From Patescibacteria group bacterium (GTDB lineage Bacteria; Patescibacteriota; Microgenomatia; UBA12405): a stretch of DNA of 64,000 bases. Made by a program: the position numbers and the translations under genes. The notes under the pieces were generated by a model, which was not told the DNA's origin, did not search any database, and saw only the letters and a program-made list of their open reading frames with translations. The DNA lies in the NCBI GenBank assembly GCA_013387215.1, contig WARW01000003.1:10227-74226 (forward strand), given 5' to 3'. Numbering within the stretch: position 1 is the stretch's first letter; each line of letters begins with the position of its first letter. This document shows, piece after piece, positions 14,449 to 60,318 of this stretch.

Positions 14449-14997
14449 CTATTCCCGACAACAATCAAGAATCTTACCAATAACACCACTAACCTTACCC
14501 ATAAAATCTGTTTTATCGGCTTTTAAAGGTTTGTCTGATTTTGATAAAACTGGAGTATCGTTTTTGGTTTCTGATTTAAAGTCGTCAGATTTAAGCATGC
14601 CAAGATTTAGGCCCCAAAAAAGATTGTAGAGGTTATATGATTTTTTGAAAAATTCTTCCGAAGCTTTAATATCGCCCTTGGTTTGAGCTTTGGTACCAAC
14701 CTCCATAAGTCTCATGGAAGCAGCTAAAAGATGTTTACTAATACACCAGACTTCACCCTCATAATCTTTAATAATCATTTTCAAAAGCCCTTTGCGCATA
14801 TCGCGAACTTCATTAAGAAGATCATAATATTTTGTTTTGCCTGTTTTTCCGCCAGAGAAGAAAAGATGTTCTTCAATGGAAATAAGGTTCATGATGGCAA
14901 TAGATAGGTCTTCATCGGAAGACAAATCCAAAGTTTCACCTTTTTCCATTTTTTTAACTTTGTTTAAAAATTGATTAATATCTTCATTATTGGTCAT
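14449..14997 (-). CDS. Hypothetical cytoplasmic protein
   Basis: 182-aa ORF with coding-like composition and no recognisable motif. Confidence 0.45.
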   Translation of the reverse strand: MTNNEDINQFLNKVKKMEKGETLDLSSDEDLSIAIMNLISIEEHLFFSGGKTGKTKYYDLLNEVRDMRKGLLKMIIKDYEGEVWCISKHLLAASMRLMEVGTKAQTKGDIKASEEFFKKSYNLYNLFWGLNLGMLKSDDFKSETKNDTPVLSKSDKPLKADKTDFMGKVSGVIGKILDCCRE

Positions 14998-15014
14998 AGT
15001 TGATTGTACCCTAT

Positions 15015-15470
15015 TTAAAGGTTAAAAATAAGTTTAAAAGCAAGAGTGCTTAGGATTAATAAACTTAGCGGAAAAACAACCCGCTGATAATAAAAAAGAA
15101 CCTTACCGTGGTTGCGTTTTTTGGTGTAAAGATTAATAAAGTTTCCTAAGATTACTGCCACAAGACCTAGAGTTTCACCAAGAACAATTTTATCGATTCC
15201 CAAAATCGAATCCTTTCCACTGATTTGATTAGTAAAACTAAAATAGAACAATGTTAGTCCATATAATATTAAAGATAAAATTATGGGATTTCTTAAAATT
15301 CTATTTTTAAATTTAGAGGCCAAATAGAAAGCGATAACAGTATTAAGACCGCCGATCCAGATATTAATTAAAAGCGAATCAATGCCTAATTTTTCAGCTA
15401 AAATCATACCACCACCAACTGTAACTATACAAACTGGACATTGAGCATAAACTTCTTTGACTAAGAACAT
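15015..15470 (-). CDS. Small membrane protein with a CPVC motif
   Basis: About 4 TM helices. Start trimmed to MFLVKEV so it does not overlap the copA C-terminus. Confidence 0.4.
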   Translation of the reverse strand: MFLVKEVYAQCPVCIVTVGGGMILAEKLGIDSLLINIWIGGLNTVIAFYLASKFKNRILRNPIILSLILYGLTLFYFSFTNQISGKDSILGIDKIVLGETLGLVAVILGNFINLYTKKRNHGKVLFYYQRVVFPLSLLILSTLAFKLIFNL

Positions 15471-15489
15471 AATAGTATATTTTAACTTA

Positions 15490-18400
15490 TTATTTTTGAT
15501 TGAACTTGTAATAATTGTCAGCAAACTGACGAGGCACAAAATGCATCATATCGAGGCTGGTTAAGTTCTTTTTGGGAAGTCCGGTAATAATAATATTACT
15601 GCCAAAAAAATTGTTTATAGTGTCAAACTTTTTTTGAAAAAGCTTTTCTTTTATCATCATTCGAGCCTCATCGTAGCCAACATAAGTGGATAAATATTTA
15701 GTGCCAGCTACTTCATAATTTGTTTTAAGCGGATCGATAATTGATAATAATTGCTGCGGAATATTGGTTTGGTCATACAAATATATTAGTTTCAAATCGC
15801 CAAGAGCAGTTTCGGTAACTAATATATCACTTTTAGCGGTTAGATTGGCAAAAGATTTTTGATTAAAGATGTGATATTCATCGATCAAAGTTCCAGTTGG
15901 GGCAAGAATACCAACAATTTTAATTTTTGGCAGTCCAAAAAAGTTGGGTATTTCAGAACCAACACCTTTAATTAGGCCTTCTTCAATCATCATACTGGCC
16001 TCTTTAGATCCTAAAATAACATTATTTTCTCCTGATAAATCAAAGTTGCCTGCAGATAATTTTAAAGAGGATGGCAGATTGTCGACTCCTAAAATTAATT
16101 TAGGATTATTTTTGACAAAACCAATTTTTGAAGGATTATTTTTTAAAAGCTCATTTATTTCGGTTTTTATGGATGGCCGAGATTGGATATAGGCAACTAG
16201 ACCAGAATTGGATTGGGCATCAGCTCCCATTTTTGAAGAAAAGCTGGCAAATTCAATAAAAATAAGTAAAAAGAATGAAATCATCACAAAAGGAGCCAAT
16301 TTTGATATCCAATTAAACTTCCCTGGTTTGAAAAATTTTAAGGTTAAAGAGTTAGCCACCACTGAAACCGAAGATAAAGCCATGGCCAGACCTGCAAGTT
16401 CAGGTTTAAGAATTAAACCAATCCCCATCAAAGCACGAGCAGCGATGGGAATTCCCAGAATATTATAAAAGAGAGCAAAGAACATATTTTGACGAATTTT
16501 ACCTACGGTTTGGCGAGAAAGATCTATGGCTGTCAGAACTCCATTTAAATCATTACTGATAATGACAATACTACCTGATTCCATGGCGATATCAGCACCA
16601 CTACCCATAGCAATACCAAGATCAGATTGAGTTAAAGCAGGGGCATCGTTGATACCATCGCCAACCATAGCCACTTTAAAACCAGAATCTTGAAGTTTTT
16701 TGACTTCCTCCGCTTTGTTTTGAGGTAAAACTTCAGCTAATACATTGGTAATACCAAGCTGTTTGGCAATTGCGTCAGCAGTACGGTGATTATCACCAGT
16801 GATCATATATACAGCAATGCCCATTTTTTTAAGTTTGGAAACAACAGCAACTGAAGTTTCTTTAAGTTGATCGGCTACAGCAATTAATCCTAAAACTTTT
16901 TCTTTATTGGCGATAAGCATGGCAGTTTTACCATCATTCTCAAGCCTCTCCATATCATAAGAAGAAGTTAAGGGAATTTGATTCGCTTCCAATAGTTTAC
17001 GATTACCAACATAATAGGTTTGACCATTGACTACTGCTTTAACACCAGACCCAGGGATGGCCTGAAAATCTTCAATCGCATAGTTGATTGCCCCACAAGA
17101 TTGGCTATAACGAACAATCGATTCAGCCAAAGGATGTTCAGATTTTTGTTCGATTGAGTATAGAATTGAAAGAATTGTCTGATCACCTGGAAGATAGTTA
17201 ATAAAATCAGTTACTTCAGGTTTACCTTTAGTGAGAGTGCCAGTTTTATCAAAGACAATAGCTTCCAAATTTTGGGCCATTTCCAGCGGTTCGCCACCTT
17301 TAATTAAAACTCCATATTCAGCACCTTTACCAGTTCCAACCATAATAGAGGTAGGAGTGGCCAAACCAAGAGCACAAGGACATGCAATAACGATAACTGC
17401 CACAAAAGCTAATAAGGCGAAAGTTAAAGAAGACCCAAGCAAAAAGTACCAAATTACAAAAGTAAGGACGGCGATACTAATTACAGCTGGTACAAAAATT
17501 GAGGAAATCTTATCGGCAAAACCTTGAATTGGAGCTTTTGAACCTTGAGCATCTTCAATTAATTTGACGATTTGAGACAAAGCAGTGTCGGCACCAATTT
17601 TAGTGGTTTTAAACTCAAAAGAACCAGTCTTATTGATTGAAGCGGTATAAACTTTTGATCCAATTTGTTTTTCAACTGGTAATGATTCGCCAGTTAGAAT
17701 AGATTCATCAACAGCCGAGTAACCAGAAACTACTTCCCCATCCACAGGAATTCTTTCGCCAGGGCGAACAACAACAGTGTCGCCTACCATTACCTGTTCA
17801 ACAGGAATATCCACTGGTTGGCCATTTTTTAGAATACGAGCAGTTTTTGGGGCCAACCCCATTAATTTTTCAATAGCCTCAGAGGTCTTTCCTTTAGCTT
17901 TAGCTTCGAGCCATTTACCTAATGATACAAAAGTGATTAAGAAGGCGGCGACCTCAAAATAAAGATTGGGGATTTTGGAACCATTTAAGCCAATAAATGA
18001 ACCAGTTTCACTAAAATAATTAAAAAATTCAAATATGCTGTAAAAATAGGCTGTACTTGTGCCTATAGCAACTAAAGAATCCATGGAAAAAGTACGCATT
18101 TTTAAGGCTGACCAAAACCCAGCAAAAAAATTAGAACCAACGTAAAAAAGAACCGGAGTGGCTAATAATAAAGAGATCAATCCGGCGTATGGCATGACGA
18201 TGCTTTTAAATGGAACAGTATTGGTAAAATCGTAGACCATGAATAGAATCATGGGGATGCTTAGGATTAAACCGGTGAAGAATTTTGAAAACCAATATTT
18301 TATTTCCTGTTTTCTTTTTTCGTGCTGATTTTCTGTTTTTTCGTTAGGAAGCGAGGCTTTATAACCAGCTGCTTCAATGCTTTTAATCAAATCATCGATT

Positions 18401-18582
18401 TTGGCTGAACTAGGACTGTATACAACTCTGGCTTTTTCAGTGGCAAAATTAACATTAACCTCATTAACACCATTAACTTTTTTTAAAGACCGCTCGATAA
18501 GACCAGCGCAGCTGCTACAATGCATGCCAGTAATATCCAAATTTACGGCAATATTTTTTGTAGATGGGTTTTGATTTTCCAT
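15490..18582 (-). CDS. copA: Copper-translocating P1B-type ATPase with an unusual roughly 270-aa C-terminal extension
   Basis: N-terminal HMA domain (GMHCSSCAG), CPC motif in a TM helix ([11 protein letters not shown]), DKTGTLT phosphorylation site and [10 protein letters not shown] hinge. About 270 extra residues follow the last TM helices. Confidence 0.85.
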
Positions 18583-18584
18583 AT

Positions 18585-18803
18585 TTATAGAAGCTGGGCT
18601 GTATAGCCAGAATTTTTTATAATTTTTATTAAATCTTCTGAATTAAGTTTGTCAGAATCAAATTCAACAGTAACTAGTTTTGTTTCTAAATTAGCATCAA
18701 CAGAAATAACACCATTAGTATCTTCTAAGTCCATTTGAATTAATTTTGGACAGGAAGGACAATGCATGTCGGAAACTTTAAATGTATTTTTTTGATTAGT
18801 CAT
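18585..18803 (-). CDS. copZ: Copper chaperone, HMA domain (CopZ-like)
   Basis: 72 aa with an [10 protein letters not shown] metal-binding motif. Confidence 0.75.
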
Positions 18804-18811
18804 GTTGGTTT

Positions 18812-19249
18812 TTAATTAATAACTTCAAAAGTACCCGTGTACATGCCCATGGTGCAACTGAAACGATAGGTTCCAGGTGCAACTGGAGTAAATTCTTTTG
18901 TAACTTGAGAGTTAGGGATAAGATCAATTCGGTCTGAGAAAAGCCCGTGAGAAACAATACTTCCAGCGCAGCCAGCATTGCCAGATGAAGTAATTTGCCA
19001 AACCACTGGTATGTTGGCTTTAATTTTAAAATTGTTTGGAGAATAACCAGCAGCCGAAGCAGTCATCTTAACAATTTGTTTACCATCTACAACTTGAACT
19101 AAGTCAGGGCCAGAAGCTGCATTGGAAACAGAGGGGTGTTTTTGGCTAAATATGAAAAAACCAAAAACAACGATTAAAACTATCGAACCTAAAACATAAA
19201 ATAGATTAGAAATATTTTTCATAGTTTTTATTAATGATGACAACCACAA
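18812..19249 (-). CDS. Secreted cupredoxin-like domain protein
   Basis: N-terminal TM/signal segment. Its C-terminal domain is paralogous to the C-terminal domain of the 19231..20694 protein (GTYRFSCTMGMYTGTFEV vs GIYRFSCWMGMVTGTFEV). Confidence 0.5.
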   Translation of the reverse strand: MWLSSLIKTMKNISNLFYVLGSIVLIVVFGFFIFSQKHPSVSNAASGPDLVQVVDGKQIVKMTASAAGYSPNNFKIKANIPVVWQITSSGNAGCAGSIVSHGLFSDRIDLIPNSQVTKEFTPVAPGTYRFSCTMGMYTGTFEVIN

Positions 19250-20694
19250 CCTTTTGCACCAGATTCAATAATAGTTGGGGCTGCTCCAACAGAGTTGATA
19301 TTGCCTGATTTATCAAGCACTTCAAAAGTGCCCGTAACCATGCCCATCCAACAACTAAACCGATAAATTCCAGGAGTGTTGACAGTAAATTCTTTAACAC
19401 TGGTGGTTCCTGGAACTAAATCAATTTGACCGGAAAATAGTTGGCGGGAGATGATGGCATTAGTGCAACCACTAGTGCCCGTATCCTCTATTTCCCATTT
19501 AACAGGTATTCCAGCGCGAACTTTAAGTTTATTTGGAGCATATCCAGCAGATGAAGCTTTAATATGGATGATTTGCTTACCATCAATAATTGGAGGTAAG
19601 TCAGTGGCAATATTTTGAGATATGGTTTTAGGGGAAGTTAGAGATTCCAGATTAGAAACGCCTAAAACTGCCAATTGGGCATTTATATTAAAAAAGGCGA
19701 AGAATAAAACCAGAATTCCGGCAATTATAGAAAACTGCTGAGAAAATTTTGGATTAGAAAAAAGTTTAATACTGGTTAAGCCAATTGTGAGCAGGCCTGG
19801 TAGGGTGCCAATAGCAAATAAGCCCATGATTAAGGCACCTTGTATTGGATTACCAGAAGCTAATGCCAGTGCTTGGACTGTAATAGTAAAACCGCAAGGC
19901 AAGAAAAAGGTTAAAGCTCCCATAATTACCGGAGCAAATTTGCCAGTAAAATTAGACTCGTCTGAAAATCGGCGGGTTAAAGATTTGGGTAATTGAAGAC
20001 GAAATTTTTGCAGAGCTTTTATGCCAAGCATTTGTAAACCCAGAAGAATCATTAAGACAGATACAGCGATCACTAGGCTGGCTGAAAAAAGCGGCGTCAA
20101 TCTGAAGAAATTACCAATTTGGCCCAGAATGGCGCCAAAAGCAAGATAAGATAAAACCCGACCAGTATTAAACAAAAAGTGCGGTTGTAGTTTTTTGACG
20201 GTGGAATCGGAATTTGAATAAAGATTGTTCCATTGTTGAGACAAAGATAAAATAATACCGCCAACAAGAGCCGCGCAACTGGAAAAACCAGCGAGCAGAC
20301 CGAAAAGGAAAAACACAGGTAGAGAACTTTGTGCATTAACTGATATTAAAGAGGAAAATCCAGATTTACCTAATAAAATAAAAACTAAAATAAATAAAAG
20401 GCTAAAAAATAATGAAGAAAAAACATTGAGACGTTTTTTTTCTATTGGGCAAGAAACAGCTTTGGTGTTTTGTTTAGAAAATGGCTTGAGTGAAAACCGA
20501 TAGTTATCTTTTAAAAAGATATCGTTTAAATCTTTTAAAGATATTTTTATATTTCTTTTTGTTTCAAGAGATAAAGTTGACTTAGCTAAGGAAACCTCGG
20601 CTTTAACAACTCCTTGCTGCTTTAAAAGTTTCTTTTCGATTAGAATTTCACAAGAAGGACAATGCAGGCCAGAAATATAAAATAATTGTTTCAT
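19231..20694 (-). CDS. Fusion protein: HMA domain + DsbD/CcdA/MerT-like transmembrane domain + C-terminal cupredoxin-like domain + GCGCHH tail
   Basis: GLHCPSCEIL HMA motif. Multi-TM core with Cys residues in TM helices (SSCAALVGG, FLPCGFTIT). Cupredoxin-like domain. C-terminal Cys/His cluster. Start set at Met35 of the track ORF (MKQLFYISGLHCPSC). Confidence 0.55.
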   Translation of the reverse strand: MKQLFYISGLHCPSCEILIEKKLLKQQGVVKAEVSLAKSTLSLETKRNIKISLKDLNDIFLKDNYRFSLKPFSKQNTKAVSCPIEKKRLNVFSSLFFSLLFILVFILLGKSGFSSLISVNAQSSLPVFFLFGLLAGFSSCAALVGGIILSLSQQWNNLYSNSDSTVKKLQPHFLFNTGRVLSYLAFGAILGQIGNFFRLTPLFSASLVIAVSVLMILLGLQMLGIKALQKFRLQLPKSLTRRFSDESNFTGKFAPVIMGALTFFLPCGFTITVQALALASGNPIQGALIMGLFAIGTLPGLLTIGLTSIKLFSNPKFSQQFSIIAGILVLFFAFFNINAQLAVLGVSNLESLTSPKTISQNIATDLPPIIDGKQIIHIKASSAGYAPNKLKVRAGIPVKWEIEDTGTSGCTNAIISRQLFSGQIDLVPGTTSVKEFTVNTPGIYRFSCWMGMVTGTFEVLDKSGNINSVGAAPTIIESGAKGCGCHH

Positions 20695-20708
20695 ACTACG
20701 TAGTGTAG
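20695..20708. promoter_or_regulatory. Candidate operator, core ACTACGTAGTGTAG, directly 5' of the start codon of the HMA/cupredoxin gene
   Basis: A near-identical 14-nt core recurs at 21987..22000. It lies in the 23-nt gap between the BlaR1-like stop and the next start. Confidence 0.4.
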
Positions 20709-20717
20709 TAGATGTTT

Positions 20718-21626
20718 TCATTCTTTGCAATGGTCTGATAAAGAGATGTTTTGGTGAGAGAATAAAACTTCGACACATTTGACCAAATGGTTGCATTGAT
20801 AGAAAATTGTAGATTTACCAATAAAGGTAGTAGTAAACAAAATGAGAACCAATAAAAATGAATTTAGGGTAAAGAAGTTTTTGAAATTAGGCTTCTTTTT
20901 ATCAACTAAAACCGAAACGCGTTCATGAAATTCAGAAAAATTATTGAGATAAAAATTATTTCTTGTGTCAGGTTCTTCTATTTTTAACAGAGCAGAAACC
21001 AATGGTGTTTTTGATTTCAATTGAGTTTGGGCATAATTATCACAATTTATTTCTACCAATGCAGAATAATTTTTGAATATCCAGACTTTCTTTGGGAAAG
21101 AAGGTAAAAAGTGGTTGATTAAATCAACAATAAAATCTTTTAAAGGGTCAAAATTAAATTGATGTTTTTGTTCATGAAAAATAATCGCTTCCAATTCTTT
21201 TGGATTAACGGTTTTAATTAATTTTTCCGATATATAGATTTGAGGATTTAAAAAACCTGAAGTAAAGGCAATGACTTCTTTAATTTTGATCAAGTTATAC
21301 TGATTTTGTCTTTTTGATTTAAGGTTGTTTAAAAATTTTTTAGTTAAAAATATTTTATTAAAAGAATAATCGAGAGATTTAAAGAAGCGAAGTAAAAGAA
21401 TAAATAATATTATTCCGGATAAAACATTTATATAAAATGTCGAAGAAATAATTAAGGGAATTAAATTTTGATGATTATTTTTTAGGGCATCTATTAAAAA
21501 TATCAACTGCATCGAAAATCCAGAGAATATCTTTAAAAAGGCGAGTGATAAAAAGGATATGTAAAGAATTCCTAAAGTTAGGATGAATAAAAAAGCTAGA
21601 TTTCTTTGAAAACTGATTTTAGTCAT
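20718..21626 (-). CDS. BlaR1/MecR1-like M56 peptidase-domain signal transducer (antirepressor)
   Basis: 4 TM helices and an HEQKH (HExxH) zinc motif. Overlaps the repressor gene by 8 nt. Confidence 0.65.
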   Translation of the reverse strand: MTKISFQRNLAFLFILTLGILYISFLSLAFLKIFSGFSMQLIFLIDALKNNHQNLIPLIISSTFYINVLSGIILFILLLRFFKSLDYSFNKIFLTKKFLNNLKSKRQNQYNLIKIKEVIAFTSGFLNPQIYISEKLIKTVNPKELEAIIFHEQKHQFNFDPLKDFIVDLINHFLPSFPKKVWIFKNYSALVEINCDNYAQTQLKSKTPLVSALLKIEEPDTRNNFYLNNFSEFHERVSVLVDKKKPNFKNFFTLNSFLLVLILFTTTFIGKSTIFYQCNHLVKCVEVLFSHQNISLSDHCKE

Positions 21627-21984
21627 TATTTTTCAAATATTCTTTTAATAACTCAATATCATTTTTATTGTTTTTAATAGTATCGACAAATTGGGAAATA
21701 GCCAACTTACCATATGAACCGACCAAATTGCCGTAAATTCCAGACAGATTAGATTCGATAAACTGATCTTTATTTAAAATGGGAGTATAAAAATAAACTT
21801 TACCTTCTAGTTTTCTTTTGACTATTTTTTTATCTGACATTCGCTTGAGAACAGTCATAATTGTGGTGTAGGCCTGATCCCCTTTTAGACTCACTAGAAC
21901 TTCGGCAGGTTTTAAAGGACGGTTGGACTGCCAAAGGATATCCATTATCTTCTGTTCTAATTCACCAAGCATTTGGGTTTTCAT
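21619..21984 (-). CDS. BlaI/MecI/CopY-family winged-helix transcriptional repressor
   Basis: 121 aa with a penicillinase-repressor-type N-terminal HTH (QKIMDILWQSNRPLKPAEVLVSL...TIMTVLKRM). Confidence 0.75.
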   Translation of the reverse strand: MKTQMLGELEQKIMDILWQSNRPLKPAEVLVSLKGDQAYTTIMTVLKRMSDKKIVKRKLEGKVYFYTPILNKDQFIESNLSGIYGNLVGSYGKLAISQFVDTIKNNKNDIELLKEYLKNND

Positions 21985-21986
21985 AT

Positions 21987-22000
21987 ACTACTTAGTGTAG
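21987..22000. promoter_or_regulatory. Candidate operator, core ACTACTTAGTGTAG (palindromic CTAC-N5-GTAG), directly 5' of the repressor start codon
   Basis: Embedded in the 19-nt imperfect palindrome ATACTACTTAGTGTAGCAT. Second copy of the same 14-nt core as at 20695..20708. Confidence 0.4.
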
Positions 22001-22031
22001 CATATTTTTAAAACTCCATGTTTATCAGTGA

Positions 22032-23420
22032 TTATTGCTTACATTGACCATTGTAGACTGGTGAACAACCAAGTTGGCTGTCGGTTCGCTGGCCAGAAGT
22101 GTCGTCAATATGTTTACGAAGCACTTGTTCTAGCTCATACCCTTTTTGAGGAATGGTGGAGATTAAATTGTTTTGCTCTTTAGGATCGTCATTTAGGTTA
22201 TAAAGCTCTTTGTTGCCGTTTTCTAAAGTTAAAATAAATTTCCAGCCATCTGGAGTCTGATAGGACCTTTTAAATGTATAAAGTCGATAATCAGTTTCAC
22301 TAAATACACTGTGGGCGACAGATTTACCATCAAAAACCGGAGTAAGATCAGCACCTTTTGTCTGTTCAGGAACAGGGTTTTTTATTCCCAATAAATCAAG
22401 CGCAGTTGGAACTATATCGAGAGTGCTTACTAGTTCATTAATTCTTTGGCCTTTGGTTTGGCCTGGTTTGTGAATAGCAAACAAAACATCAACTAGTTCA
22501 CCATAAAGAGTGTGGCCATGATCAAAACGATTATGTTCGTAGAATTCAGTGCCATGATCACTCATAACGATAATAATTGTATTATCCAAAAGTTTCATGT
22601 TGTTGATCTGATCCATAAAGTTTTTGAATTCAGCATCGGTACGATTAATCTTTTCATCATAAATAGCCCGCCAAAAAGCCACATCTTCGGGTGATAGATT
22701 TAAACTTTTACCAGCTAAACCGTCTTCACGAAGTTGACCTTGTTCGGTTGGACTGCCAGTATATTTGCCGTTATATGGCTTTGAAACATAGCGATAATCA
22801 AAACCACCGGCTGGTGCATGCTGCCCGTGAACATCATAGCCATGAAGGAAAAGGAAAAACTGCTTGTTTTTATTCTGCTTTAACCAGTCAACTGCTCTTG
22901 GTATGCTGCCATCGAAACCACCGAAGGTGCCAGTGGGTTCATAATAAGTATCAAAACCTTGACTAAAACCAAACTGCGGCCCAACTCCAGCATCGCCAGT
23001 AAAACCGCCAGTAACAAAACCTTGTTTTTTAAGAATTTCAGCAAGGGTCATGGCATTCGGAGAAAGTTTTTTTAAATTAGAAATAGTTCCCTTTTGGGCT
23101 TTCATATCGTAATCACTAAATTTGTTGACAACTTTATGTTCGGATGGATACATAGAAGTAAAGACAGACATGTGGGTTGGCACTGTCCAAGATGACGGAC
23201 TGACAGTATTGGTAAATAAAGTTGACTTATCAATAAAAGAATCTAAATTGGGAGTCGTGTTCAAAGAATAGCCATATTCATGCAAATGCTTGGCCTGCAA
23301 GCCATCGATCGAAACAAGAATAAGATTATATTTTTTATGAAATAGTTTTGGAGAAATCTTTATTGCAGCAACGGTTAGTAAGCTTAGAACAATGACACCA
23401 ATAAGAAATTTAATTTTCAT
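22032..23420 (-). CDS. Membrane-anchored sulfatase-fold (alkaline-phosphatase superfamily) enzyme, divergent paralog
   Basis: N-terminal signal anchor. Motifs DGLQAKHL..YGYSLNTTPNLDSF, WTVPTH (Thr where sulfatases carry fGly-Cys/Ser) and SDHGTEF...HG. Confidence 0.65.
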   Translation of the reverse strand: MKIKFLIGVIVLSLLTVAAIKISPKLFHKKYNLILVSIDGLQAKHLHEYGYSLNTTPNLDSFIDKSTLFTNTVSPSSWTVPTHMSVFTSMYPSEHKVVNKFSDYDMKAQKGTISNLKKLSPNAMTLAEILKKQGFVTGGFTGDAGVGPQFGFSQGFDTYYEPTGTFGGFDGSIPRAVDWLKQNKNKQFFLFLHGYDVHGQHAPAGGFDYRYVSKPYNGKYTGSPTEQGQLREDGLAGKSLNLSPEDVAFWRAIYDEKINRTDAEFKNFMDQINNMKLLDNTIIIVMSDHGTEFYEHNRFDHGHTLYGELVDVLFAIHKPGQTKGQRINELVSTLDIVPTALDLLGIKNPVPEQTKGADLTPVFDGKSVAHSVFSETDYRLYTFKRSYQTPDGWKFILTLENGNKELYNLNDDPKEQNNLISTIPQKGYELEQVLRKHIDDTSGQRTDSQLGCSPVYNGQCKQ

Positions 23421-23493
23421 ATCAAGTAAATCAAATTATATAAATGATATAAGTGTTATATTAAATTTATCTTTTAAAAGCAATAGACCGTAA

Positions 23494-25023
23494 ATGCGAT
23501 TGGGTAAAAAAATATTTATATTTGGTTTGCTGGGATTGATGATAATTGGGAGCGGTTTTTTGATTATTAAAAAAGTATCAAAAAAAACCTGCGATAAATG
23601 CAACATAATGCTTATCGATGTTGATATTTTGAGAGCAGATGAACTTCCCTGCTATGGATATCCCCGAAACACAATGCCAAACATTTGTGAATTTGCCAAA
23701 AAATCAGTAAGTTTTAAAGATAATTATTCGACTTCATATTGGACACTACCAAGTATTTTTTCAGTAATTACTTCACTATATCCAACTTTTCATCAAATGC
23801 AGGTTAATTATATGTTTGCACTGTCGTCTAGAATTCCGACTTTAGCAGAAACTTTACATAAGCAAGGATATAAGACTGTTTATGTGGGACAAAAAGACGA
23901 TTTAATGTCTAGTTATAATGGCGGTTTCCGCGGTTATGATTTAGTAACTCAAGAACCAATTGAAAAAGTAATTGATGAACTTTCAAAAAGTTCTCAACCA
24001 TGGTTTATACATAGGTATATCAGTGAATTGCATATGCCCTATTTATTGCCAGATAATTTAAAACCTGTGGAAGATTTGCCGGTTCCAAAAAATTTACCAA
24101 CTACTTATTACACTTTCGATTTATTTTTTAATAAATATTTAAAAGAACATTACAAAGAAATATTTAAACAGAAAGCAATCGATGAATATAGAGCAATTAT
24201 TTTAGGACCAGATAAGGCAGATGATATTAGTGTGACCAATCTTTTTGATAAATTGAGAGCTGACGATAAAACCATAAATGAATATTTATTAGATGCCTGG
24301 AGACCGAGATTAGATTTTTATTTAAAATCGTTTGACGGAAAAAATCCCCAAGATGTGGCTTATTTAAGAATGATGTATGACACTAAACTAAAATATCTTG
24401 ATGAAAAACTAAAACCTCTTTTACAAAGACTAGACTCGAGTTCATTGTCAAAAAACACTATTACAGTGATTATGTCGGATCATGGTGAAGCATTTGGCGA
24501 GCACGGAACGTTTTCACATGAGGATAATCATTTCACTGAACTATTTTACACTCCTTTAATAATCAGGGCTCCTCAATTTGAAGCAAAACAAGTTGAACAA
24601 ACCACAAATATAGTGGATATATTTCCGACTATTTTAGATTTAACAGGTGAGAAAAAAATTGATATGCATCAAGGGCAATCATTAGTACCTTATATGAATG
24701 GCCAAACTAAAAACGATACTACATTCAGCTTGAGCCAATCAATAGAAGGAACGCTTTTACAAAATAAGAATTGGCTGTACTTTTTACCAAACAGCGCTAA
24801 AGATATGAATGAATCAGAACTCTATAATAAAACCATCGACCCCCTGGAAAAAGTGAATGTGACTGGACAGAATCAAGATTTAGTTAAAACACTTTTTAAA
24901 AAAGCTGATTTATTCCGCTCATACGGAGGGATTGATTATGAAAAAGAAGAAATACCGTTGCCAAACCGGATGAAGTTGGACCCAGATAAAATAGAACGCC
25001 TTAAAAAAGAAGGATATTTTTAA
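23494..25023 (+). CDS. Membrane-anchored sulfatase-fold enzyme, tandem paralog 1
   Basis: TM anchor, CDKC, LIDVDILRADELPCYGY, TSYWTLPS in place of CxPxR, SDHGEAFGEHG, and a C-terminal ...KEGYF. Confidence 0.7.
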   Translation: MRLGKKIFIFGLLGLMIIGSGFLIIKKVSKKTCDKCNIMLIDVDILRADELPCYGYPRNTMPNICEFAKKSVSFKDNYSTSYWTLPSIFSVITSLYPTFHQMQVNYMFALSSRIPTLAETLHKQGYKTVYVGQKDDLMSSYNGGFRGYDLVTQEPIEKVIDELSKSSQPWFIHRYISELHMPYLLPDNLKPVEDLPVPKNLPTTYYTFDLFFNKYLKEHYKEIFKQKAIDEYRAIILGPDKADDISVTNLFDKLRADDKTINEYLLDAWRPRLDFYLKSFDGKNPQDVAYLRMMYDTKLKYLDEKLKPLLQRLDSSSLSKNTITVIMSDHGEAFGEHGTFSHEDNHFTELFYTPLIIRAPQFEAKQVEQTTNIVDIFPTILDLTGEKKIDMHQGQSLVPYMNGQTKNDTTFSLSQSIEGTLLQNKNWLYFLPNSAKDMNESELYNKTIDPLEKVNVTGQNQDLVKTLFKKADLFRSYGGIDYEKEEIPLPNRMKLDPDKIERLKKEGYF

Positions 25024-25068
25024 TAGGTGGTATATTAAACTGATAATTAAAAGTAATAGGCTGTTTTA

Positions 25069-26613
25069 ATGCTCAAAAGAAAATATCAAAAAATTATAAT
25101 CGGAGCGGGATTTATTTTGTTGATTATATTTGGGCTAATAGGACTTTTTAAACGAACAAACAAATTGCCATTTAAAGCCTGTACCAACTGCAACATTATA
25201 TTAATTGATATTGATATTTTAAGAGCTGATGAATTGCCTTGCTACGGATATTCCCGAAATACCACCCCAAACATTTGTAATTTTGCGAAAAAGGGTATGA
25301 TTTTTAATGACAACTATTCTCCATCCTATTGGACTATGCCTAGTATGTTTTCCACAATAACGTCTCTTTATCCAACTTTCCACCGAATCCAAATGAATTA
25401 CACTGAAGCTTTGTCGCCTAAAATTCCAACCCTTGCAGAAACTTTACACAAACAAGGCTACCGAACAATCTATATTGGCCCGGAAGACGACATGTTAAAA
25501 CACAATAATGGCGGCTTACGCGGTTATGATTTAGTGACTCAAGAACCGATTGAAAAAGTGGTAAGCGAATTGTCGAAAAGTTCTCAACCATGGTTTGTGC
25601 ATTACTATAATAGTGATTTGCATGCCCCATATTTATTTAATGAAAAACCTCAATTGATTGATAATCTTCCCGCCCCTAAAAATTTTCCAATTACTTATTT
25701 AGATTTCAGTATTCTTCTAAATAAATATTTAAAAGAACATTACAAAGAAATATTCAAACAGAAAGCTATCGATGAATATAGAGCAATTATTTTAGGACCA
25801 GATAAAGCAGATGATATTAGTGTAACTACTCTTTTTAACAATATTAGAGGCGATAAGAAAATAATGAATGATTATTTATTTGATGCCTGGGTGCCAATAT
25901 TAAACACTTATCTTGGTTCTTTTGATAAAAATAATGCCGATAATGTGGCATATTTACGCATGATATATGATACTAAACTTAAGATAATAGACGATAAGTT
26001 GGGAGCGCTTTTTCAAGAGTTGGATTCAGAAGCACTATCTAAAAACACCATAACAGCAATTTCGTCAGACCACGGAGAAGCGTTTGGAGAACATGGAACT
26101 TTTTCACATGAGGTTAACCATTTCACTGAACTATATTACACACCTTTAATAATCAAGGCTCCACAATTTTCAGGAAAAATAATTAATGAAACCAGCAGCA
26201 ACATTGATATTTTCCCGACTTTTTTAGACTTAACCGGCAGCGAAAAAATTAATAATCAGCAAGGCAAATCACTAGTTTCTTATATGAATAATGAAAATAA
26301 AAGTTTAGAGGGCTTTAGTGTCAGTGAATGTTCGGAAGGAATATTGCTGCAAAATAAAAAATGGTTGTATTTTTTATCAAATGAGGTTTCAGAATTTAAT
26401 AAATCGGAACTTTACGACAGGAAAAATGATCCATTAGAAAAAAATAATGTGGTTGGAAAGAATCCAGAATTAGCTAGATCACTTTACCGACAGGCTGATT
26501 TGTTCCGATCCTATGGCAAAATTGAATATAAAAAAGAAGAGATACCAATTAGTGAGCAAATTAAGTTGGATCCAGAAAAGATCGAACGTCTTAAAAAAGA
26601 AGGCTATTTTTAA
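25069..26613 (+). CDS. Membrane-anchored sulfatase-fold enzyme, tandem paralog 2
   Basis: Same architecture. Has CTNC and ends in KEGYF. Confidence 0.7.
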   Translation: MLKRKYQKIIIGAGFILLIIFGLIGLFKRTNKLPFKACTNCNIILIDIDILRADELPCYGYSRNTTPNICNFAKKGMIFNDNYSPSYWTMPSMFSTITSLYPTFHRIQMNYTEALSPKIPTLAETLHKQGYRTIYIGPEDDMLKHNNGGLRGYDLVTQEPIEKVVSELSKSSQPWFVHYYNSDLHAPYLFNEKPQLIDNLPAPKNFPITYLDFSILLNKYLKEHYKEIFKQKAIDEYRAIILGPDKADDISVTTLFNNIRGDKKIMNDYLFDAWVPILNTYLGSFDKNNADNVAYLRMIYDTKLKIIDDKLGALFQELDSEALSKNTITAISSDHGEAFGEHGTFSHEVNHFTELYYTPLIIKAPQFSGKIINETSSNIDIFPTFLDLTGSEKINNQQGKSLVSYMNNENKSLEGFSVSECSEGILLQNKKWLYFLSNEVSEFNKSELYDRKNDPLEKNNVVGKNPELARSLYRQADLFRSYGKIEYKKEEIPISEQIKLDPEKIERLKKEGYF

Positions 26614-26654
26614 TTAGGTTAATATATAAATAATATATTGAATAAATAAATTAC

Positions 26655-28196
26655 ATGAAGATTCTTTTTTTTAGAGAAAAAAAATACCGCAAGATTATTG
26701 TGTTAGTTGGTATAGCATTAATAATTGGGTTAGTACTTGCATGGAAAAGATTGCCTGAAAAAAAGTGTGAACACTGCAATATTGTAATGGTAGATATTGA
26801 TGTCTTAAGAGCTGATGAGTTGCCTTGTTATGGATATTCCCGAAACACCACTCCCAATATTTGCCAGTTTGCCAAAAAGGCGACTATTTTTAAAGATAAT
26901 TATTCGACTTCATATTGGACTTTACCTAGTATGTTTTCAACAATTACCTCTATGCTACCCACCTTTCATAAGGTGAGAACTGAATTTATCAACAAACTGT
27001 CCCCTGATACAAAAACACTAGCCGAAGTTTTACATAGCCAGGGATATCGAACAGTATATATTGGCGACGGCCAGAATCCTGCTTTATTAACCAAAGATAA
27101 CGGAGGCTTGAGAGGTTACGATATTGTGACAAAAGAACCGATCGAAAAAGTAATTGCAGATCTTTCAAAAAGCTCACAGCCATGGTTTATCCACTATTAT
27201 TTAGTTGATTTACATATGCCTTATTTATTACCAGAAAATGTGAAACCAATGGAAGATCTGCCAGCTCCAAAAAATTTGCCAATAAACCAAACCGATTTTG
27301 ACCGCATGTTAAATACCTATTTAAAAAAGCACTATAAACAAATATTTAATGAAAAAGCGATTGGAAAATACGGCTCGGTTATTTTAGCTCCAGATAAAGC
27401 AGATGATACCAGTGTGACTAAACTTTTCAACGATTTAAGATGGACTAGTAAAAGCATGACTGAATATTTTATTGACAGCTGGAAGCCTATTTTTAATTCA
27501 TATATGGATTCATTTGATAAGAATAATCCCAATGATGTGGCATATATTAGAATGATGTACGATACAAAATTAAAACTGGCTGACGAGCAACTACAATCTC
27601 TTTTTATAAAATTAGAGACAAAACCATTTTCTGAAAATACGATCTCGATAATTATGTCAGATCATGGAGAAGCGTTTGGAGAACATGGAACTTTTTCCCA
27701 TGACAATAATAGTTATACGGAACTTTATCACACGCCGTTAATAATTCGGGCACCTGGACTGCCTGCTAAAATTGTGGACCAAACTTCAAGCAACCTAGAT
27801 ATTTTTCCAACAGTTTTAGACTTAAATGAAATAAAAAAATTAGACAGTTTTCAGGGAAAATCATTAGTGGACAGTGTCAATAAAAAAACAGAAACTAAAT
27901 CATTTAGTCTAAGCGAATATTCTGATGGTGTAATTTTACAAAACCATGACTGGCTGTATTTCTTACCATTTTGGGTTGATAAGTTTGAAAACTCAATGTT
28001 GTTTGATAGAAATAAAGATCCTAAGGAAAAAAATAATGCAGCAAAACAGAATTTAGAGTTAACTCACTTTCTTTATAAACAAGCTGATTTATTGAGATCT
28101 TATAATGGAATTATTTATAAGCCAGAGGAAATTCCAAGCGATATTAAATTAAATCCTGAAAAAATAGAGCGTCTTAAAAAAGAAGGCTATTTTTAA
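26655..28196 (+). CDS. Membrane-anchored sulfatase-fold enzyme, tandem paralog 3
   Basis: Same architecture. Has CEHC and ends in KEGYF. Confidence 0.7.
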   Translation: MKILFFREKKYRKIIVLVGIALIIGLVLAWKRLPEKKCEHCNIVMVDIDVLRADELPCYGYSRNTTPNICQFAKKATIFKDNYSTSYWTLPSMFSTITSMLPTFHKVRTEFINKLSPDTKTLAEVLHSQGYRTVYIGDGQNPALLTKDNGGLRGYDIVTKEPIEKVIADLSKSSQPWFIHYYLVDLHMPYLLPENVKPMEDLPAPKNLPINQTDFDRMLNTYLKKHYKQIFNEKAIGKYGSVILAPDKADDTSVTKLFNDLRWTSKSMTEYFIDSWKPIFNSYMDSFDKNNPNDVAYIRMMYDTKLKLADEQLQSLFIKLETKPFSENTISIIMSDHGEAFGEHGTFSHDNNSYTELYHTPLIIRAPGLPAKIVDQTSSNLDIFPTVLDLNEIKKLDSFQGKSLVDSVNKKTETKSFSLSEYSDGVILQNHDWLYFLPFWVDKFENSMLFDRNKDPKEKNNAAKQNLELTHFLYKQADLLRSYNGIIYKPEEIPSDIKLNPEKIERLKKEGYF

Positions 28197-28209
28197 ATAA
28201 ATTTGAAAG

Positions 28210-29727
28210 ATGGATAAAAAAATAAGAAATGTTTTATTGGTTTTGTTAATTTTTGTCGTGGGAACGGCAGTATTTGCATTAATAAAGACTAGGACAAAGA
28301 AAACCTGTGATCATTGCAATATTGTGATAATGGATATTGATATTTTAAGAGCTGATGAATTGCCCTGTTACGGATATTCCAGAAATACGACCCCAAATAT
28401 TTGCCAGTTTGCCAAAAAGGCAACTGTTTTTAAGGATAATTATTCAACTTCTGTTTTAACACTACCAGATATGTTTTCGATAATTACATCTCTTTATCCA
28501 ACTTTTCACCATGTGAACACAGCAACAATCGATAAACTTTCAGCAAACATCCCTACTTTGACTGAGATATTGAAAAAAGAAGGCTACAGGACAGTTTTTA
28601 TTGGAGATAGTGAATATTCTGGAACAATAAATAATCAAAACAATGGGCTAAGAGGCTTTGATATGGTGACACAAGAACCGATTGAAAAGGTAATGGAAGA
28701 ATTATCAAAAAGTTCTCAACCATGGTTTATATATTATTACTCAGGCGACTTACATATGCCTTATTTACTGCCGAAAAACACAAAACCGATGGAAAATATG
28801 CCGGCTCCAAAAAACTTACCGATAAACCAAACTGATTTTGATAAACGGTTAAATATTTATTTAAAAAATCACTACAAAGAGGTTTTTAATAAAAAAGCCA
28901 TTAAAGAATATTCTTCAATAATATTATCGCCAGATAAACCAGCAACTGAACTGTTTTATTCCTTAAAAAGTGACAATGAAAAGATGAAAGAATACTTAAT
29001 CGATGTGTGGAAACCTGAGTTTAACGTGTATATGGAATCATTTGATCAAAATAATTCTTCAGAGGTAAGTTATGTCCGAATGATTTATGATACAAAGTTA
29101 AATTTAGTTGATAATAAACTTGAAAAGGTGCTTAAAAAACTGGACACAAAAGAATCAATAAAAAATACGATTACTTTAATTTCATCAAACCACGGAGAAA
29201 GCTTTGGAGAACATGGAAATTTTTCCCATAATTTTAGTCCTCACTCAGAACTTTATTACACTCCATTAATAATTAAAGCGCCACAACTTAAGGCAAAACA
29301 AATCCAAAATACTTCAAGTAATATGGATATCCTACCCACAATTTTGGATTTAACTGGAATAAAAAAGTTAGACAGTTTTCAAGGAAACTCATTGATCGCT
29401 AGTATTAATCAAAAAGAAAACTTAGAAAATTTTGCCATGAGTGAATATTGGGGAAATATAATTTTACAAAATAAAAAATGGCTATATTTTTTACCAGCAG
29501 AAGCTAAATACATTGAGCAATCAATGCTTTTTAATAAAGAGAATGATAAAGATGAAAATACCAATGTGTCGATGCAAAATACAGAACTAGTAAAGATGCT
29601 TTACAAAAGGGCGGATTTGCTACGTTCTTATAGTGGAATTAATTATAAAATAGAAACTATTCCTACTAATGAAATAAAAATAGATCCTGAAAAAATTAAG
29701 AGGATTCAAAAAGAAGGATATTTTTAA
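28210..29727 (+). CDS. Membrane-anchored sulfatase-fold enzyme, tandem paralog 4
   Basis: Same architecture, with SNHGESFGEHG. Has CDHC and ends in KEGYF. Confidence 0.7.
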   Translation: MDKKIRNVLLVLLIFVVGTAVFALIKTRTKKTCDHCNIVIMDIDILRADELPCYGYSRNTTPNICQFAKKATVFKDNYSTSVLTLPDMFSIITSLYPTFHHVNTATIDKLSANIPTLTEILKKEGYRTVFIGDSEYSGTINNQNNGLRGFDMVTQEPIEKVMEELSKSSQPWFIYYYSGDLHMPYLLPKNTKPMENMPAPKNLPINQTDFDKRLNIYLKNHYKEVFNKKAIKEYSSIILSPDKPATELFYSLKSDNEKMKEYLIDVWKPEFNVYMESFDQNNSSEVSYVRMIYDTKLNLVDNKLEKVLKKLDTKESIKNTITLISSNHGESFGEHGNFSHNFSPHSELYYTPLIIKAPQLKAKQIQNTSSNMDILPTILDLTGIKKLDSFQGNSLIASINQKENLENFAMSEYWGNIILQNKKWLYFLPAEAKYIEQSMLFNKENDKDENTNVSMQNTELVKMLYKRADLLRSYSGINYKIETIPTNEIKIDPEKIKRIQKEGYF

Positions 29728-31292
29728 TGAAAGGCTTTTTAAGTAGAAAAAAACTTTTGTTGCTAGCATTATTGATTTTATTGTCGATAGTAATTGGTTT
29801 TGGATCGTGGACTTTTTATAAAAAAACAGAAAATAAGTCCGAAAAAAAGTGCGAGAATTGCAACATAATGCTTATTGATATTGATATTTTAAGAGGTGAT
29901 GAATTATCCTGTTTGGGATATTCCCGAAATACCACCCCAAACATTTGTGAATTTGCCAAAAATGGAGCTGTTTTTAAGGATAATTATTCGACTTCATATT
30001 GGACTCTTCCAAGTATATTTTCAACCATGACTTCTTTGTATCCGACTTTTCATGGGATGCAAAATGCAGGCAAGGATATTCTCTCTCCAAACATTACAAC
30101 TTTGGCTGAGGTGTTACATAAAAAAGGATATATGACGGTTATGGTAAACGGAAATAAAGATACAATGCAAATGCTGTTTGGCGATAATGAGGGTTTGAGA
30201 GGCTTTGAAATGGTTACAGCTGATCCGGTTGAAAAAGTTATAGATGACTTATCAAAAGACAATAGACCTTGGTTTATTTATTACTATAACTCAGAGCTGC
30301 ACTTTCCATATTTATTGCCAGAAAACACAAAACCGATGGAAGATTTGCCAGCTCCAAAAAATTTACCAATAAACCAAACTGATTTTGATACTTTACTAAA
30401 TAAATATTTAAAGACTCATTATACAGAAATATTTAAGCCAAAGATAATTGATAAGTACGGTTCGATTATTTTAGGGTCAAATAAAGAAGATGATATGGGT
30501 ATGGTGAAAATGTTTAATACTTTAAAAGCGGATCCTTCAAAAGTAAGCGAATATTTTATTAATGACTGGAATGCAAATTACCAAACTTACATGGAGTCGT
30601 TTGATCAAAATAATCCATCTGACGTTAAATATGTGCGAATGCTTTACGATACAAAATTAAAATTACTTGATAATAAAATGGGAAGTGTTTTACAAAAATT
30701 AAATTCGAAACAGCTTTCAGAAAATACAATCACAGTTATTACTTCAGACCATGGAGAAAATTTTGGAGAACATGGTTTTTTTACCCATATTGCCGATTTT
30801 CATTCCGAAGTGTTTTATATTCCATTAATTATTAAATCACCCAACATTTTACCGACAACAATCGAGCAAACAACAAGTAATATTGACATATTCCCTACTC
30901 TTTTAGATTTAACTGGCATCAATAGCCCGGGCGGACTACAAGGGATTTCTTTAGTTCCGTATATTAATAATCAGCACACAGAAAAACAATCATTTGCTAT
31001 GAGTGAATATTGGGGAAATGTGATTTTAGAGAATCATGATTGGCTGTATTTTTTACCTAAAGATGAGCAAGGTGTAGTCAAACCCACGTTCTATGACAGA
31101 ATTAAAGATCCGGCAGAAAAAGAAAATGTCATAGATAAATATCCTGAGATGGTAAATTCCCTTTATAAACAAGCCAGCCTGCTTCGCTCTTATAATGTTT
31201 TCTATGAAAATAAACCAATAGTAAAACCTGATGTAATCAAAAACATTGATAAAGTAAAATTAGATCGATTAAGGAAAGAAGGTTATTTTTAA
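29727..31292 (+). CDS. Membrane-anchored sulfatase-fold enzyme, tandem paralog 5
   Basis: Same architecture. Has CENC and ends in KEGYF. Confidence 0.7.
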   Translation: MKGFLSRKKLLLLALLILLSIVIGFGSWTFYKKTENKSEKKCENCNIMLIDIDILRGDELSCLGYSRNTTPNICEFAKNGAVFKDNYSTSYWTLPSIFSTMTSLYPTFHGMQNAGKDILSPNITTLAEVLHKKGYMTVMVNGNKDTMQMLFGDNEGLRGFEMVTADPVEKVIDDLSKDNRPWFIYYYNSELHFPYLLPENTKPMEDLPAPKNLPINQTDFDTLLNKYLKTHYTEIFKPKIIDKYGSIILGSNKEDDMGMVKMFNTLKADPSKVSEYFINDWNANYQTYMESFDQNNPSDVKYVRMLYDTKLKLLDNKMGSVLQKLNSKQLSENTITVITSDHGENFGEHGFFTHIADFHSEVFYIPLIIKSPNILPTTIEQTTSNIDIFPTLLDLTGINSPGGLQGISLVPYINNQHTEKQSFAMSEYWGNVILENHDWLYFLPKDEQGVVKPTFYDRIKDPAEKENVIDKYPEMVNSLYKQASLLRSYNVFYENKPIVKPDVIKNIDKVKLDRLRKEGYF

Positions 31293-31298
31293 AAACAG

Positions 31299-32831: not shown

Positions 32832-32838
32832 AAAATAA

Positions 32839-59971: not shown

Positions 59972-60318
59972 CCTAAAATAATATACATTTGATATATTCC
60001 CCTAGCTAAAATAATGACGTTTTTACAACGTGAAAACCCCTAAAATCAGTACTGTGCTGACATTTTTTTGATAGAAAATTTTTTCTTTTCAAGATTCCCC
60101 TCTCGGAACCAGGTTCGATTTTGAAAAATACCATCTGAACTCGTTTGTATTTACATTAAAAATACTTACATATATCTATAATCACGTCATTACATTTTTT
60201 CACGTTACTCCTTATAATTAATTAGCTTGGTTATGACTATTTTTGGCAAGTAATAACCGCATAATAACCGATTTATTACCGTAAGAAAATAGTAAACATT
60301 TAAACTAAAATAAGTAGT

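Follow-up and report, generated by a model that had tools for sequence, protein, structure and literature searches.

A probable two-promoter copper-detoxification unit with a predicted BlaI/BlaR1-type proteolytic switch in a Patescibacteria group bacterium

The window analysed here is a stretch of 64,000 nucleotides (contig WARW01000003.1, positions 10,227 to 74,226 of the forward strand) from a Patescibacteria group bacterium with a genome of approximately 32% G+C. Part of its minus strand carries a run of copper-related genes headed by a BlaI-family repressor and a membrane protease that resembles BlaR1, and a short dyad, which we take as a candidate operator, stands at the start of the repressor gene and again within the run. 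The genes are as follows, in the order in which they are read.

21619-21984, minus strand: repressor, Penicillinase_R family, 121 amino acids, no cysteine (PF03965, 4.5e-23, residues 6-118).
20718-21626, minus strand: membrane zinc metalloprotease, M48/M56-like and BlaR1-like, motif HEQKH, 302 amino acids (Pfam, profile and fold).
19231-20694, minus strand: fusion of HMA, DsbD_2 (a CcdA/UreH-like membrane domain) and Cupredoxin_1, 487 amino acids (Pfam).
18812-19222, minus strand: Cupredoxin_1-like protein with a hydrophobic N-terminal segment, 136 amino acids from ATG 19222 (PF13473, 2.8e-10).
18585-18803, minus strand: CopZ-type HMA metallochaperone, 72 amino acids, motif MHCPSC (PF00403, 2.4e-16).
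15490-18582, minus strand: P1B-1 copper ATPase CopA, 1030 amino acids, HMA domain and CPC motif (NCBIfam TIGR01511, 633 bits against a cut-off of 397).
15015-15470, minus strand: p151, conserved membrane protein, 151 amino acids from M24, N-terminal CPVC (homologues in related loci).
14449-14997, minus strand: p182, conserved soluble protein, 182 amino acids, last gene of the unit (homologues in related loci).

A first-pass annotation of this DNA had named the six genes from repressor to CopA. All six assignments hold against Pfam, CopA being matched also by TIGR01511, and Pfam bears out the gene order on the minus strand. The left boundary placed at 14449 was right as well, because counterparts of p151 and p182 close the unit in relatives; the open reading frames (ORFs) 15015-15470 and 14449-14997 thus belong to the conserved unit. 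The protease gene starts 8 nt inside the end of the repressor gene. The longest ORF of the fusion gene opens at 20796, within the protease gene; orthologue comparison places the conserved start at 20694, and this gene is the first of a second transcription unit. The ORF of the cupredoxin-like protein opens at TTG 19249, upstream of ATG 19222. The CopZ protein matches NCBIfam CopZ models, all below their cut-offs. In the NCBI annotation the repressor (P0001) starts at M5 (21972) and has 117 amino acids. We favour M1 because an N-terminal MKT and the distance from the -10 box to ATG are conserved in orthologues. A reading in which TAGTAT serves as the -10 box for a start at M5 was rejected: orthologues lack the second methionine and their ATG stays 6-7 nt past TACA(C/A)T. 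Scans of the window for tRNA genes and Rfam families gave no matches, so no riboswitch or RNA element accounts for the dyad.

The two copies of the dyad and the promoter elements around them are located as follows.

21985-22002, minus strand: candidate operator O1 and core promoter of the repressor/protease operon, TGcTACACTAAGTAGTAT on the minus strand, arms CTAC and GTAG; ATG at 21984.
TG 22002-22001 and TACACT 21999-21994, minus strand: extended -10 at O1, from sequence and orthologue layout.
20693-20710, minus strand: candidate operator O2, TACTACACTACGTAGTAT on the minus strand, with the dyad ACTAC-N5-GTAGT at 20709-20695.
20707-20702, minus strand: -10 box TACACT at O2, 7 nt before ATG 20694.
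20725-20730, minus strand: putative -35 of the internal promoter, TTGCAA, separated from the downstream TACACT by 17 nt; TTGACA in orthologues.

Exact copies of the pattern ACTACKTAGTGTAG are present at 20695-20708 and 21987-22000 but at no other place in the whole window, which bears out the claim of a twice-repeated 14-nt core. Its count at two or fewer mismatches was reached by none of 100 dinucleotide-preserving shuffles of the window, and CTAC-N3-6-GTAG is present four times against 0.72 expected from shuffles. In coding (minus-strand) orientation the two exact sites are tgCTACACTAAGTAGTAT-ATG and taCTACACTACGTAGT-ATG. The core had been described as abutting the start codon. This is correct for 20695-20708 (ATG 20694), but at 21987-22000 two nucleotides (AT) precede ATG 21984. 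In O2, as delimited above, the start codon (20694-20692) supplies the final two bases, AT. The 14-mer is real; the full dyad around it, TACTACA-N3-TGTAGTA, is longer and overlaps both the -10 box and the start of promoters that look leaderless.

The dyad was compared across two collections of related loci, referred to by L numbers. The comparison set came from exact-protein look-ups of eleven repressor homologues (57-81% identical) together with two genome loci; the independent set, from metagenome contigs scanned with the protease profile, added 19 further loci. The repressor homologues carry the names Shapirobacteria, Collierbacteria, Patescibacteria or WS6. Related Patescibacteria loci, 364 kb in total, contain CTAC-N5-GTAG 56 times, where scaling up the shuffle mean from the window gives an expectation of approximately 1. 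The consensus over pooled sites is TACTACA-CTA-TGTAGTA(T), with 7-bp arms and a 3-nt spacer, and positions outside the search pattern are also conserved (T-1 in 32, T14 in 35, A15 in 33 and T16 in 29 of 35 unique sites). In the independent set the dyad lies directly before the repressor gene in 14/14 cases and before the HMA/DsbD gene in 13/13, and it precedes both genes in every related locus with readable flanks. The suggestion that its placement fits auto- and operon regulation gains support from this. The sites inspected occupy promoter positions of genes for the repressor, HMA/DsbD, CopZ or CopA, DsbA-like proteins, DUF5676 plus a second P-type ATPase, and p151, the last sometimes with two to three tandem copies. 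In the distant orthologues L090, L093 and L094 the spacer is 2 nt, which gives the canonical BlaI/MecI/CopY box TACAnnTGTA, e.g. TACTACAATTGTAGT. Set against the cop box KACANNTGTA, the sequences in the window are TACA-CTA-AGTA and TACA-CTA-CGTA, in which the spacer is 3 nt. Reading the window sites as ACTAnnTAGT, with a 2-nt spacer, was considered and rejected in view of the TACTACA/TGTAGTA arms and 3-nt spacer of the pooled sites.

A further sequence, TAAAATAAGTAGTATG at 60306-60321 on the plus strand, directly precedes the gene for a 1017-residue DUF4012 protein and shows two mismatches to the operator core (60305-60318). Most likely this is a leaderless promoter that resembles the operator by chance; alternatively it could be a weak operator.

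The left arm of the dyad contains a -10 hexamer, TACACT or TACAAT, and two layouts are seen. One, found in related loci, is TTGACA-N16-18-TACA(C/A)T-N6-7-ATG. In the other an extended -10, TGnTACACT-N9-ATG, replaces the -35; it characterizes the repressor promoters of the window and its closest relatives, and the form TGnTACA(C/A)T-N2-GTAGTAT-ATG is common to L001, L081, L082, L084, L086 and L089. More distant orthologues have TTGACA-N16-18 in place of TGn at the repressor promoter. At the internal promoter the -35 of the window, TTGCAA, lies inside the last protease codons (stop TGA 20720-20718) and matches the consensus at 4/6 positions, whereas orthologues have TTGACA, 5-6/6 matches and a spacing of 16-18 nt. 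A simple sigma-70 scan of the window flagged neither promoter and gave a match count no higher than in shuffles, and the promoter call therefore rests on comparative geometry. Judged by the distance from -10 to ATG, the mRNAs from both promoters are probably leaderless or carry a leader of only 1-2 nt. About ten other genes of the window have a -10 box 5-8 nt before ATG, followed by sequence unrelated to the dyad; because these leaderless-type promoters differ downstream of the -10, the GTAG arm is no general start context.

A TAnnnT -10 box 5-8 nt before the start, with no Shine-Dalgarno sequence, was noted at starts 2431, 14997 (minus), 36954, 39749 (minus) and 43877, and again at 56017, 56842, 57335, 58588 and 60319. 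Leaderless mRNAs thus seem common in the genome from which the window derives. The internal genes of the cop unit have no obvious Shine-Dalgarno sequence either.

The common gene order in relatives is repressor, protease, HMA/DsbD_2/cupredoxin fusion, cupredoxin or FtrD-like protein, CopZ, long CopA, p151 and a protein of approximately 180 residues. This synteny is kept in 12 + 15 loci, the protease gene adjoins the repressor gene in all of some 27, and all metagenome loci with readable flanks show the same order. The fusion gene is kept in L001, L002, L081, L084, L087-L090, L093, L094 and L096-L110. It has been lost together with CopA in L082 and L083, where repressor, protease, CopZ, p151 and p180 remain, and L086 has repressor, protease, p152 and p183, with the cop genes elsewhere. 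A DsbA-like thioredoxin follows the repressor/protease pair in L092 (WS6) and the second such pair in L089. Scanning genome contigs with the repressor profile returned mostly actinobacterial BlaI homologues, and close relatives only in L001 and L002. These comparisons back the original pairing of a BlaI-family repressor with a BlaR1-like protease.

The repressor aligns over its full length with BlaI and MecI of Staphylococcus aureus (1sd4, 1okr). BlaI of Mycobacterium tuberculosis is also matched in the PDB search and provides the best hit (2g9w, E = 4.9e-10), at low identity and over the N-terminal domain only. The first-pass annotation had held up CopY as the paradigm, and here it was wrong. 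CopY/TcrY proteins are defined by a C-terminal CxCx4CxC or single CxC site for Cu(I)/Zn(II) (PMC11672702, PMC7253601). The 121-residue repressor has no cysteine and so neither motif, scores 45.5 bits against the CopY_TcrY equivalog (TIGR02698, cut-off 121.95), which is its best NCBIfam match by E-value though below that cut-off, and keeps the scissile position of BlaI. BlaR1 cuts BlaI at N101-F102 (PMC9834060), and Q98-F99 of the repressor falls on this bond of S. aureus BlaI in the alignment, P1 being Gln and not Asn. We regard Q98-F99 as the candidate scissile bond. F99 is invariant across the repressor homologues, and Q/N-F is present in 57/58 homologues without N-terminal cysteines.

A sister subfamily with an N-terminal CxCxCx3C motif (L093 8001-8351; L081 521-886; L083 5514-5870; proteins P0059-P0077) has S/A-F in place of Q/N-F in 19/20 members. 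The gene in L093, the only one of this subfamily with its neighbourhood read, has no adjacent protease; the copies in L081 and L083 stand alone beside an ECF sigma gene. The split between Q/N-F on the one hand and CxCxCx3C with S/A-F on the other suggests that the clade holds two modes of control, proteolytic and by direct metal binding. The CxCxCx3C subfamily may be the direct metal-binding counterpart, with a metal site near the N-terminus where CopY has one near the C-terminus.

The orthologue profile of the protease matches BlaR1 (8exp) with E = 4.6e-5 over BlaR1 residues 108-326, from the third transmembrane (TM) region across the protease domain to the last TM helix. An AlphaFold2 (AF2) model (pLDDT 86.8, pTM 0.81) gives BlaR1 (8exq/8exr) as best Foldseek match with probability 1.0 and a TM-score of 0.44-0.55. 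In Pfam the protease scores 27.3 against PF05569 (M56), below the gathering threshold of 31, and 31 against PF01435, above the threshold of 20.3. H151ExxH155 and E192xxxD196 are invariant in 60 representatives and lie 41 residues apart, a spacing that equals that of H201 and E242 in BlaR1 (PMC9834060). F230, which is 98% conserved, aligns with F284, the P1' residue of BlaR1 autocleavage, and is a putative equivalent. The polypeptide ends 31 residues after the last TM helix, with no penicillin-binding sensor domain. This short tail carries C278-x-H280-x3-C284 ... H299-C300, with conservation among the 60 closest full-length cluster representatives of 98% for C278, 77% for H280, 92% for C284 and 80% for C300. 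Two DsbA-linked protease paralogues are without the full tail motif. At thresholds of E <= 0.001, 1e-10 and 1e-30 an exhaustive profile search recovered 4,907, ~1,000 and 79 protease homologues, respectively. By homology, the tail would be extracytoplasmic, in place of the extracellular sensor domain of BlaR1. The argument is the BlaR1 homology together with the single TM helix between tail and K/R-rich protease domain, which must be cytoplasmic because the repressor has to be reached.

How does this pair compare with known regulators? PetR/PetP (PetRP) of Synechocystis sp. PCC 6803 is a copper-dependent BlaI/BlaR1-type switch (Garcia-Canas et al. 2021; bioRxiv 10.1101/2020.07.31.226407; PMC7896320). 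PetR is degraded in a copper-dependent manner in vivo and in extracts, where copper itself activates PetP, a protease with four TM helices (bioRxiv 10.1101/2020.07.31.226407). The pairing had been called less usual for a copper operon; a copper-responsive precedent of this type therefore exists, but one controlling no copper efflux. PetRP triggers no copper-homeostasis response according to a review, which adds that what BlaR homologues do in heterotrophic marine bacteria is still to be elucidated (PMC10141476). Our search for literature directly linking BlaI/M56 with copper found none, and BlaR1-like/BlaI-like copper literature yielded PetRP.

The likeness to PetRP has several parts. PetR is a BlaI-family protein without the CopY cysteines, and the window repressor is Cys-free. 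In both systems the next gene downstream overlaps that of the repressor and encodes an M48/M56 membrane protease whose HEXXH domain is cytoplasmic and which does not end in a sensor domain. The operators share the geometry xACA-N3-TGTx, with GACA-N3-TGTC / GAC-N5-GTC for PetR and TACA-N3-TGTA / TAC-N5-GTA here, the outer base differing, and both systems are linked to copper. In contrast, PetRP targets petE and petJ (plastocyanin/cytochrome c6) and two small genes, not copper efflux; PetR activates as well; the ligands proposed for PetP are two methionines in the TM2-TM3 loop, where our protease has a C-terminal CxHx3C...C tail instead; and the host here belongs to the Candidate Phyla Radiation (CPR).

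With BlaI/BlaR1 and MecI/MecR1 of staphylococci and Bacillus the system shares the repressor fold, scissile position, gluzincin spacing, autocleavage P1' Phe, half-sites of TACA/TGTA type and an autoregulated regulator operon. It differs in having no penicillin-binding domain, in its copper target genes, in a spacer of 3 nt as opposed to 2 nt and in a protease below the Pfam M56 gathering threshold (27.3 vs 31). The link to BlaI (Rv1846c)/BlaR (Rv1845c) of M. tuberculosis is 2g9w, the best PDB sequence match of the repressor; the M. tuberculosis BlaI regulon is not known to be a cop operon. CopY/CopR/TcrY of Lactobacillales copYZAB operons have in common with it the winged-helix family, control of a CopZ/CopA operon and a related operator, KACANNTGTA, in extended form RNYKACANNTGTMRNY (PMC7253601). 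Here, however, there is no CxCx4CxC or CxC, and control is predicted to be proteolytic via a dedicated membrane protease. By analogy we would file the system as working like PetRP and BlaIR. It is not CopY, nor BlaR1 proper because the protease has no sensor domain, nor a demonstrated orthologue of PetRP (slr0240/slr0241).

We consider it probable that these genes form a two-promoter copper-detoxification unit under a BlaI/BlaR1-type proteolytic switch, in which operator and switch act on a copper regulon. The proposal builds on the position, symmetry and conservation of the dyad, the promoter geometry, family and fold of both regulators, their catalytic, autocleavage and scissile positions, and synteny. 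A dimer of the Cys-free repressor would bind TACTACA-N3-TGTAGTA and, as the bound dyad overlaps the -10 TACACT and the start of transcription and translation, would occlude RNA polymerase at both promoters. Promoter 1 would drive repressor and protease, promoter 2 the HMA/DsbD-cupredoxin fusion, cupredoxin, CopZ, CopA, p151 and p182, with leaderless transcripts that begin at ATG or 1-2 nt before it. The co-translated protease would have its zinc site in the cytoplasm and its Cys-x-His-x3-Cys...Cys tail outside the cell, where the tail would replace the penicillin-binding domain of BlaR1. Copper, most likely Cu(I), would engage this putative sensor and activate the protease, probably with autocleavage before F230. 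The activated enzyme would cut the repressor at Q98-F99, parting the DNA-binding from the dimerisation domain, and both promoters would be derepressed. A wider proposition is that sensor-domain-less BlaR1-type proteases, as a widespread class, sense extracytoplasmic copper directly via a C-x-H-x3-C...C tail and cleave a Cys-free BlaI-type repressor; this we advance only tentatively, with more doubt than belief. What would be new is that a BlaI/BlaR1-type switch linked to copper governs copper efflux in Patescibacteria, with a distinct candidate sensing element and a predicted operator within leaderless promoters.

Several points weigh against this scheme. For this organism the model is built from sequence, and copper as the presumed inducer is drawn only from the regulon and from PetRP. 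The AF2 topology of the N-terminal helices is ambiguous; the presumed outside location of the tail depends on BlaR1 homology and one TM helix. The two methionines proposed as copper ligands in PetP are not conserved in the protease; residues 45-60 contain no conserved Met, His or Cys, and the only conserved one, M39 (85%), sits in the helix before them. The internal promoter of the window has a weak -35 (TTGCAA) that the consensus scan did not pick up, and the two-mismatch look-alike stands before the unrelated DUF4012 gene. In more distant relatives a Cx5C pair persists without the His, and the regulon of relatives also takes in DsbA-like and DsbD_2 proteins.

These last observations bear on the main rival as to signal, namely that the same proteolytic switch responds to extracytoplasmic thiol/disulfide or envelope stress, copper acting indirectly and the tail cysteines forming a redox-sensitive disulfide switch. 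Given the Cx5C pair and the presence of DsbA and DsbD_2 in the regulon, the tail could report thiol or redox state instead of copper, and paralogous repressor/protease pairs do stand beside DsbA alone (L092 and the second pair in L089). However, the His and third Cys are conserved specifically in the subfamily beside cop genes, the DsbA-linked paralogues are without the full motif, the core regulon is CopA/CopZ/HMA/cupredoxin, and PetP responds to copper itself in extracts (bioRxiv 10.1101/2020.07.31.226407). We judge a redox signal unlikely, though it deserves more weight than the other alternatives. Might the motif instead be a mere core promoter and start context shared by leaderless genes, and no repressor site? 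It contains a -10 hexamer and ends at ATG, many genes of the window look leaderless, and the TAAAATAAGTAGTATG before the DUF4012 gene is similar. Against this, the ten or so other leaderless-type promoters of the window are unrelated between -10 and ATG, and the motif is a dyad with a left arm reaching upstream of the -10 (T-1, A0) and with half-sites of the TACA/TGTA type found in BlaI/CopY/PetR operators. It is confined to one functional gene set, and copies 40-60 nt upstream of starts or in tandem occur where the geometry is lost (L082 9326, L086 9529, L104 6857/6902/6952). We find this explanation improbable.

Rather less probable still is a classical CopY mechanism, in which Cu(I) binding by the repressor releases it from the DNA while the protease is an unrelated housekeeping HtpX/M48-like enzyme. 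The protease gene overlaps that of the repressor by 8 nt, is syntenic in all ~27 loci and encodes a BlaR1-like sequence and fold; the repressor is without cysteine or CxC, the defining metal site of CopY, and reaches 45.5 bits against 121.95; and the Q/N-F position tracks the repressor subfamily with a neighbouring protease. These features outweigh the inclusion of CopY in the Penicillinase_R family, the best NCBIfam E-value for CopY_TcrY, an operon content resembling copYZA and the TACAnnTGTA boxes of distant orthologues. Family membership of both proteins would also fit a genuine beta-lactam resistance regulator of BlaI/BlaR1 type that lies beside a cop operon by chance. We think this barely credible: the protease ends some 30 residues past the last TM helix and thus has no penicillin-binding sensor domain, Pfam finds no beta-lactamase or PBP2a-like gene in the unit, and operator copies precede copper genes in all loci.

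Copper efflux operons are controlled by CueR, CsoR, CopY or two-component systems, in which the regulator or the histidine kinase binds copper. If the proteolytic switch is correct, a BlaI/BlaR1-type route would add a further logic to the control of copper efflux, such a copper-linked route being documented so far only for the cyanobacterial plastocyanin/cytochrome c6 switch. Orphan M56 proteases that lack a sensor domain are numerous, and some of them would thereby gain a function. Should the tail sense copper directly, the protease would be a single-protein transmembrane copper sensor controlling efflux. As a candidate sensing site the conserved Cys/His tail is concrete and can be mutated. 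Through its operator and promoter layout this is one of few regulons readable directly from sequence in uncultured Patescibacteria.

As part of the tentative wider proposition, related versions of the switch may also govern an actinobacterial CopA and an RND pump of CusCBA/Czc type; in that case the family would serve as a tractable model for copper sensing by PetP, a question still unsolved. The loci concerned are single observations outside the CPR. The actinomycete locus L029 (10-4430) has BlaI, M56 (HEQSH), CopA, whose N-terminus is rich in Met and His, and further on a CsoR-like gene. L095 (7543-15351) has ZnuA, ABC-3, a BlaI-like repressor, a distant M56 with a His/Cys-rich tail, OEP, CusB/CzcB and RND. 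A CopA homologue lies within 8 kb in 8-9 of 78 actinobacterial BlaI loci.

Among the effector proteins, CopA contains an additional TM helix and is extended at its C-terminus by approximately 270 residues (15490-16302, residues ~760-1030), which have no Pfam match. The extension is kept in the long CopAs of relatives (1013-1134 amino acids), is absent from short ones (778-799) and also occurs free-standing. It resembles two repeats with invariant Met/His motifs (EAxMM ... LDxxH). In an AF2 model (pLDDT 89.6) its best Foldseek matches are periplasmic domains of LolC/LolE/MacB, with probability 0.97-0.99 but a TM-score of only 0.25-0.33. It may be an extracytoplasmic copper-acceptor domain. The two cupredoxin-like domains share the motifs GC..., ...H... 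and FSC(T/W)MGM, which suggests that they hold unusual Cys/Met copper sites. Past its cupredoxin domain the fusion protein ends in a Cys/His-rich tail, GAKGCGCHH (19231-19260, minus strand).

Neither p151, which starts MFLVKEVYAQCPVC with a CxxC motif, nor p182 has a Pfam or NCBIfam match. Homologues of p151 follow the CopA or protease gene in L082-L086, L097, L104 and L106, and those of p182, 73-77% identical, occupy the same position in L082-L086 and L097. Both accompany the repressor/protease pair even without CopA, and can have one to three operator copies of their own (L082, L086, L087, L104 and L106).

Immediately beside the unit, 22032-34227 holds eight adjoining genes of ~460-520 amino acids, one on the minus strand (22032-23420) and the others on the plus strand (23494-34227). 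They look like tandem paralogues: two translations that were read, of ~460-510 amino acids, have SDHG/DHG motifs, and several others end in ...KKEGYF.

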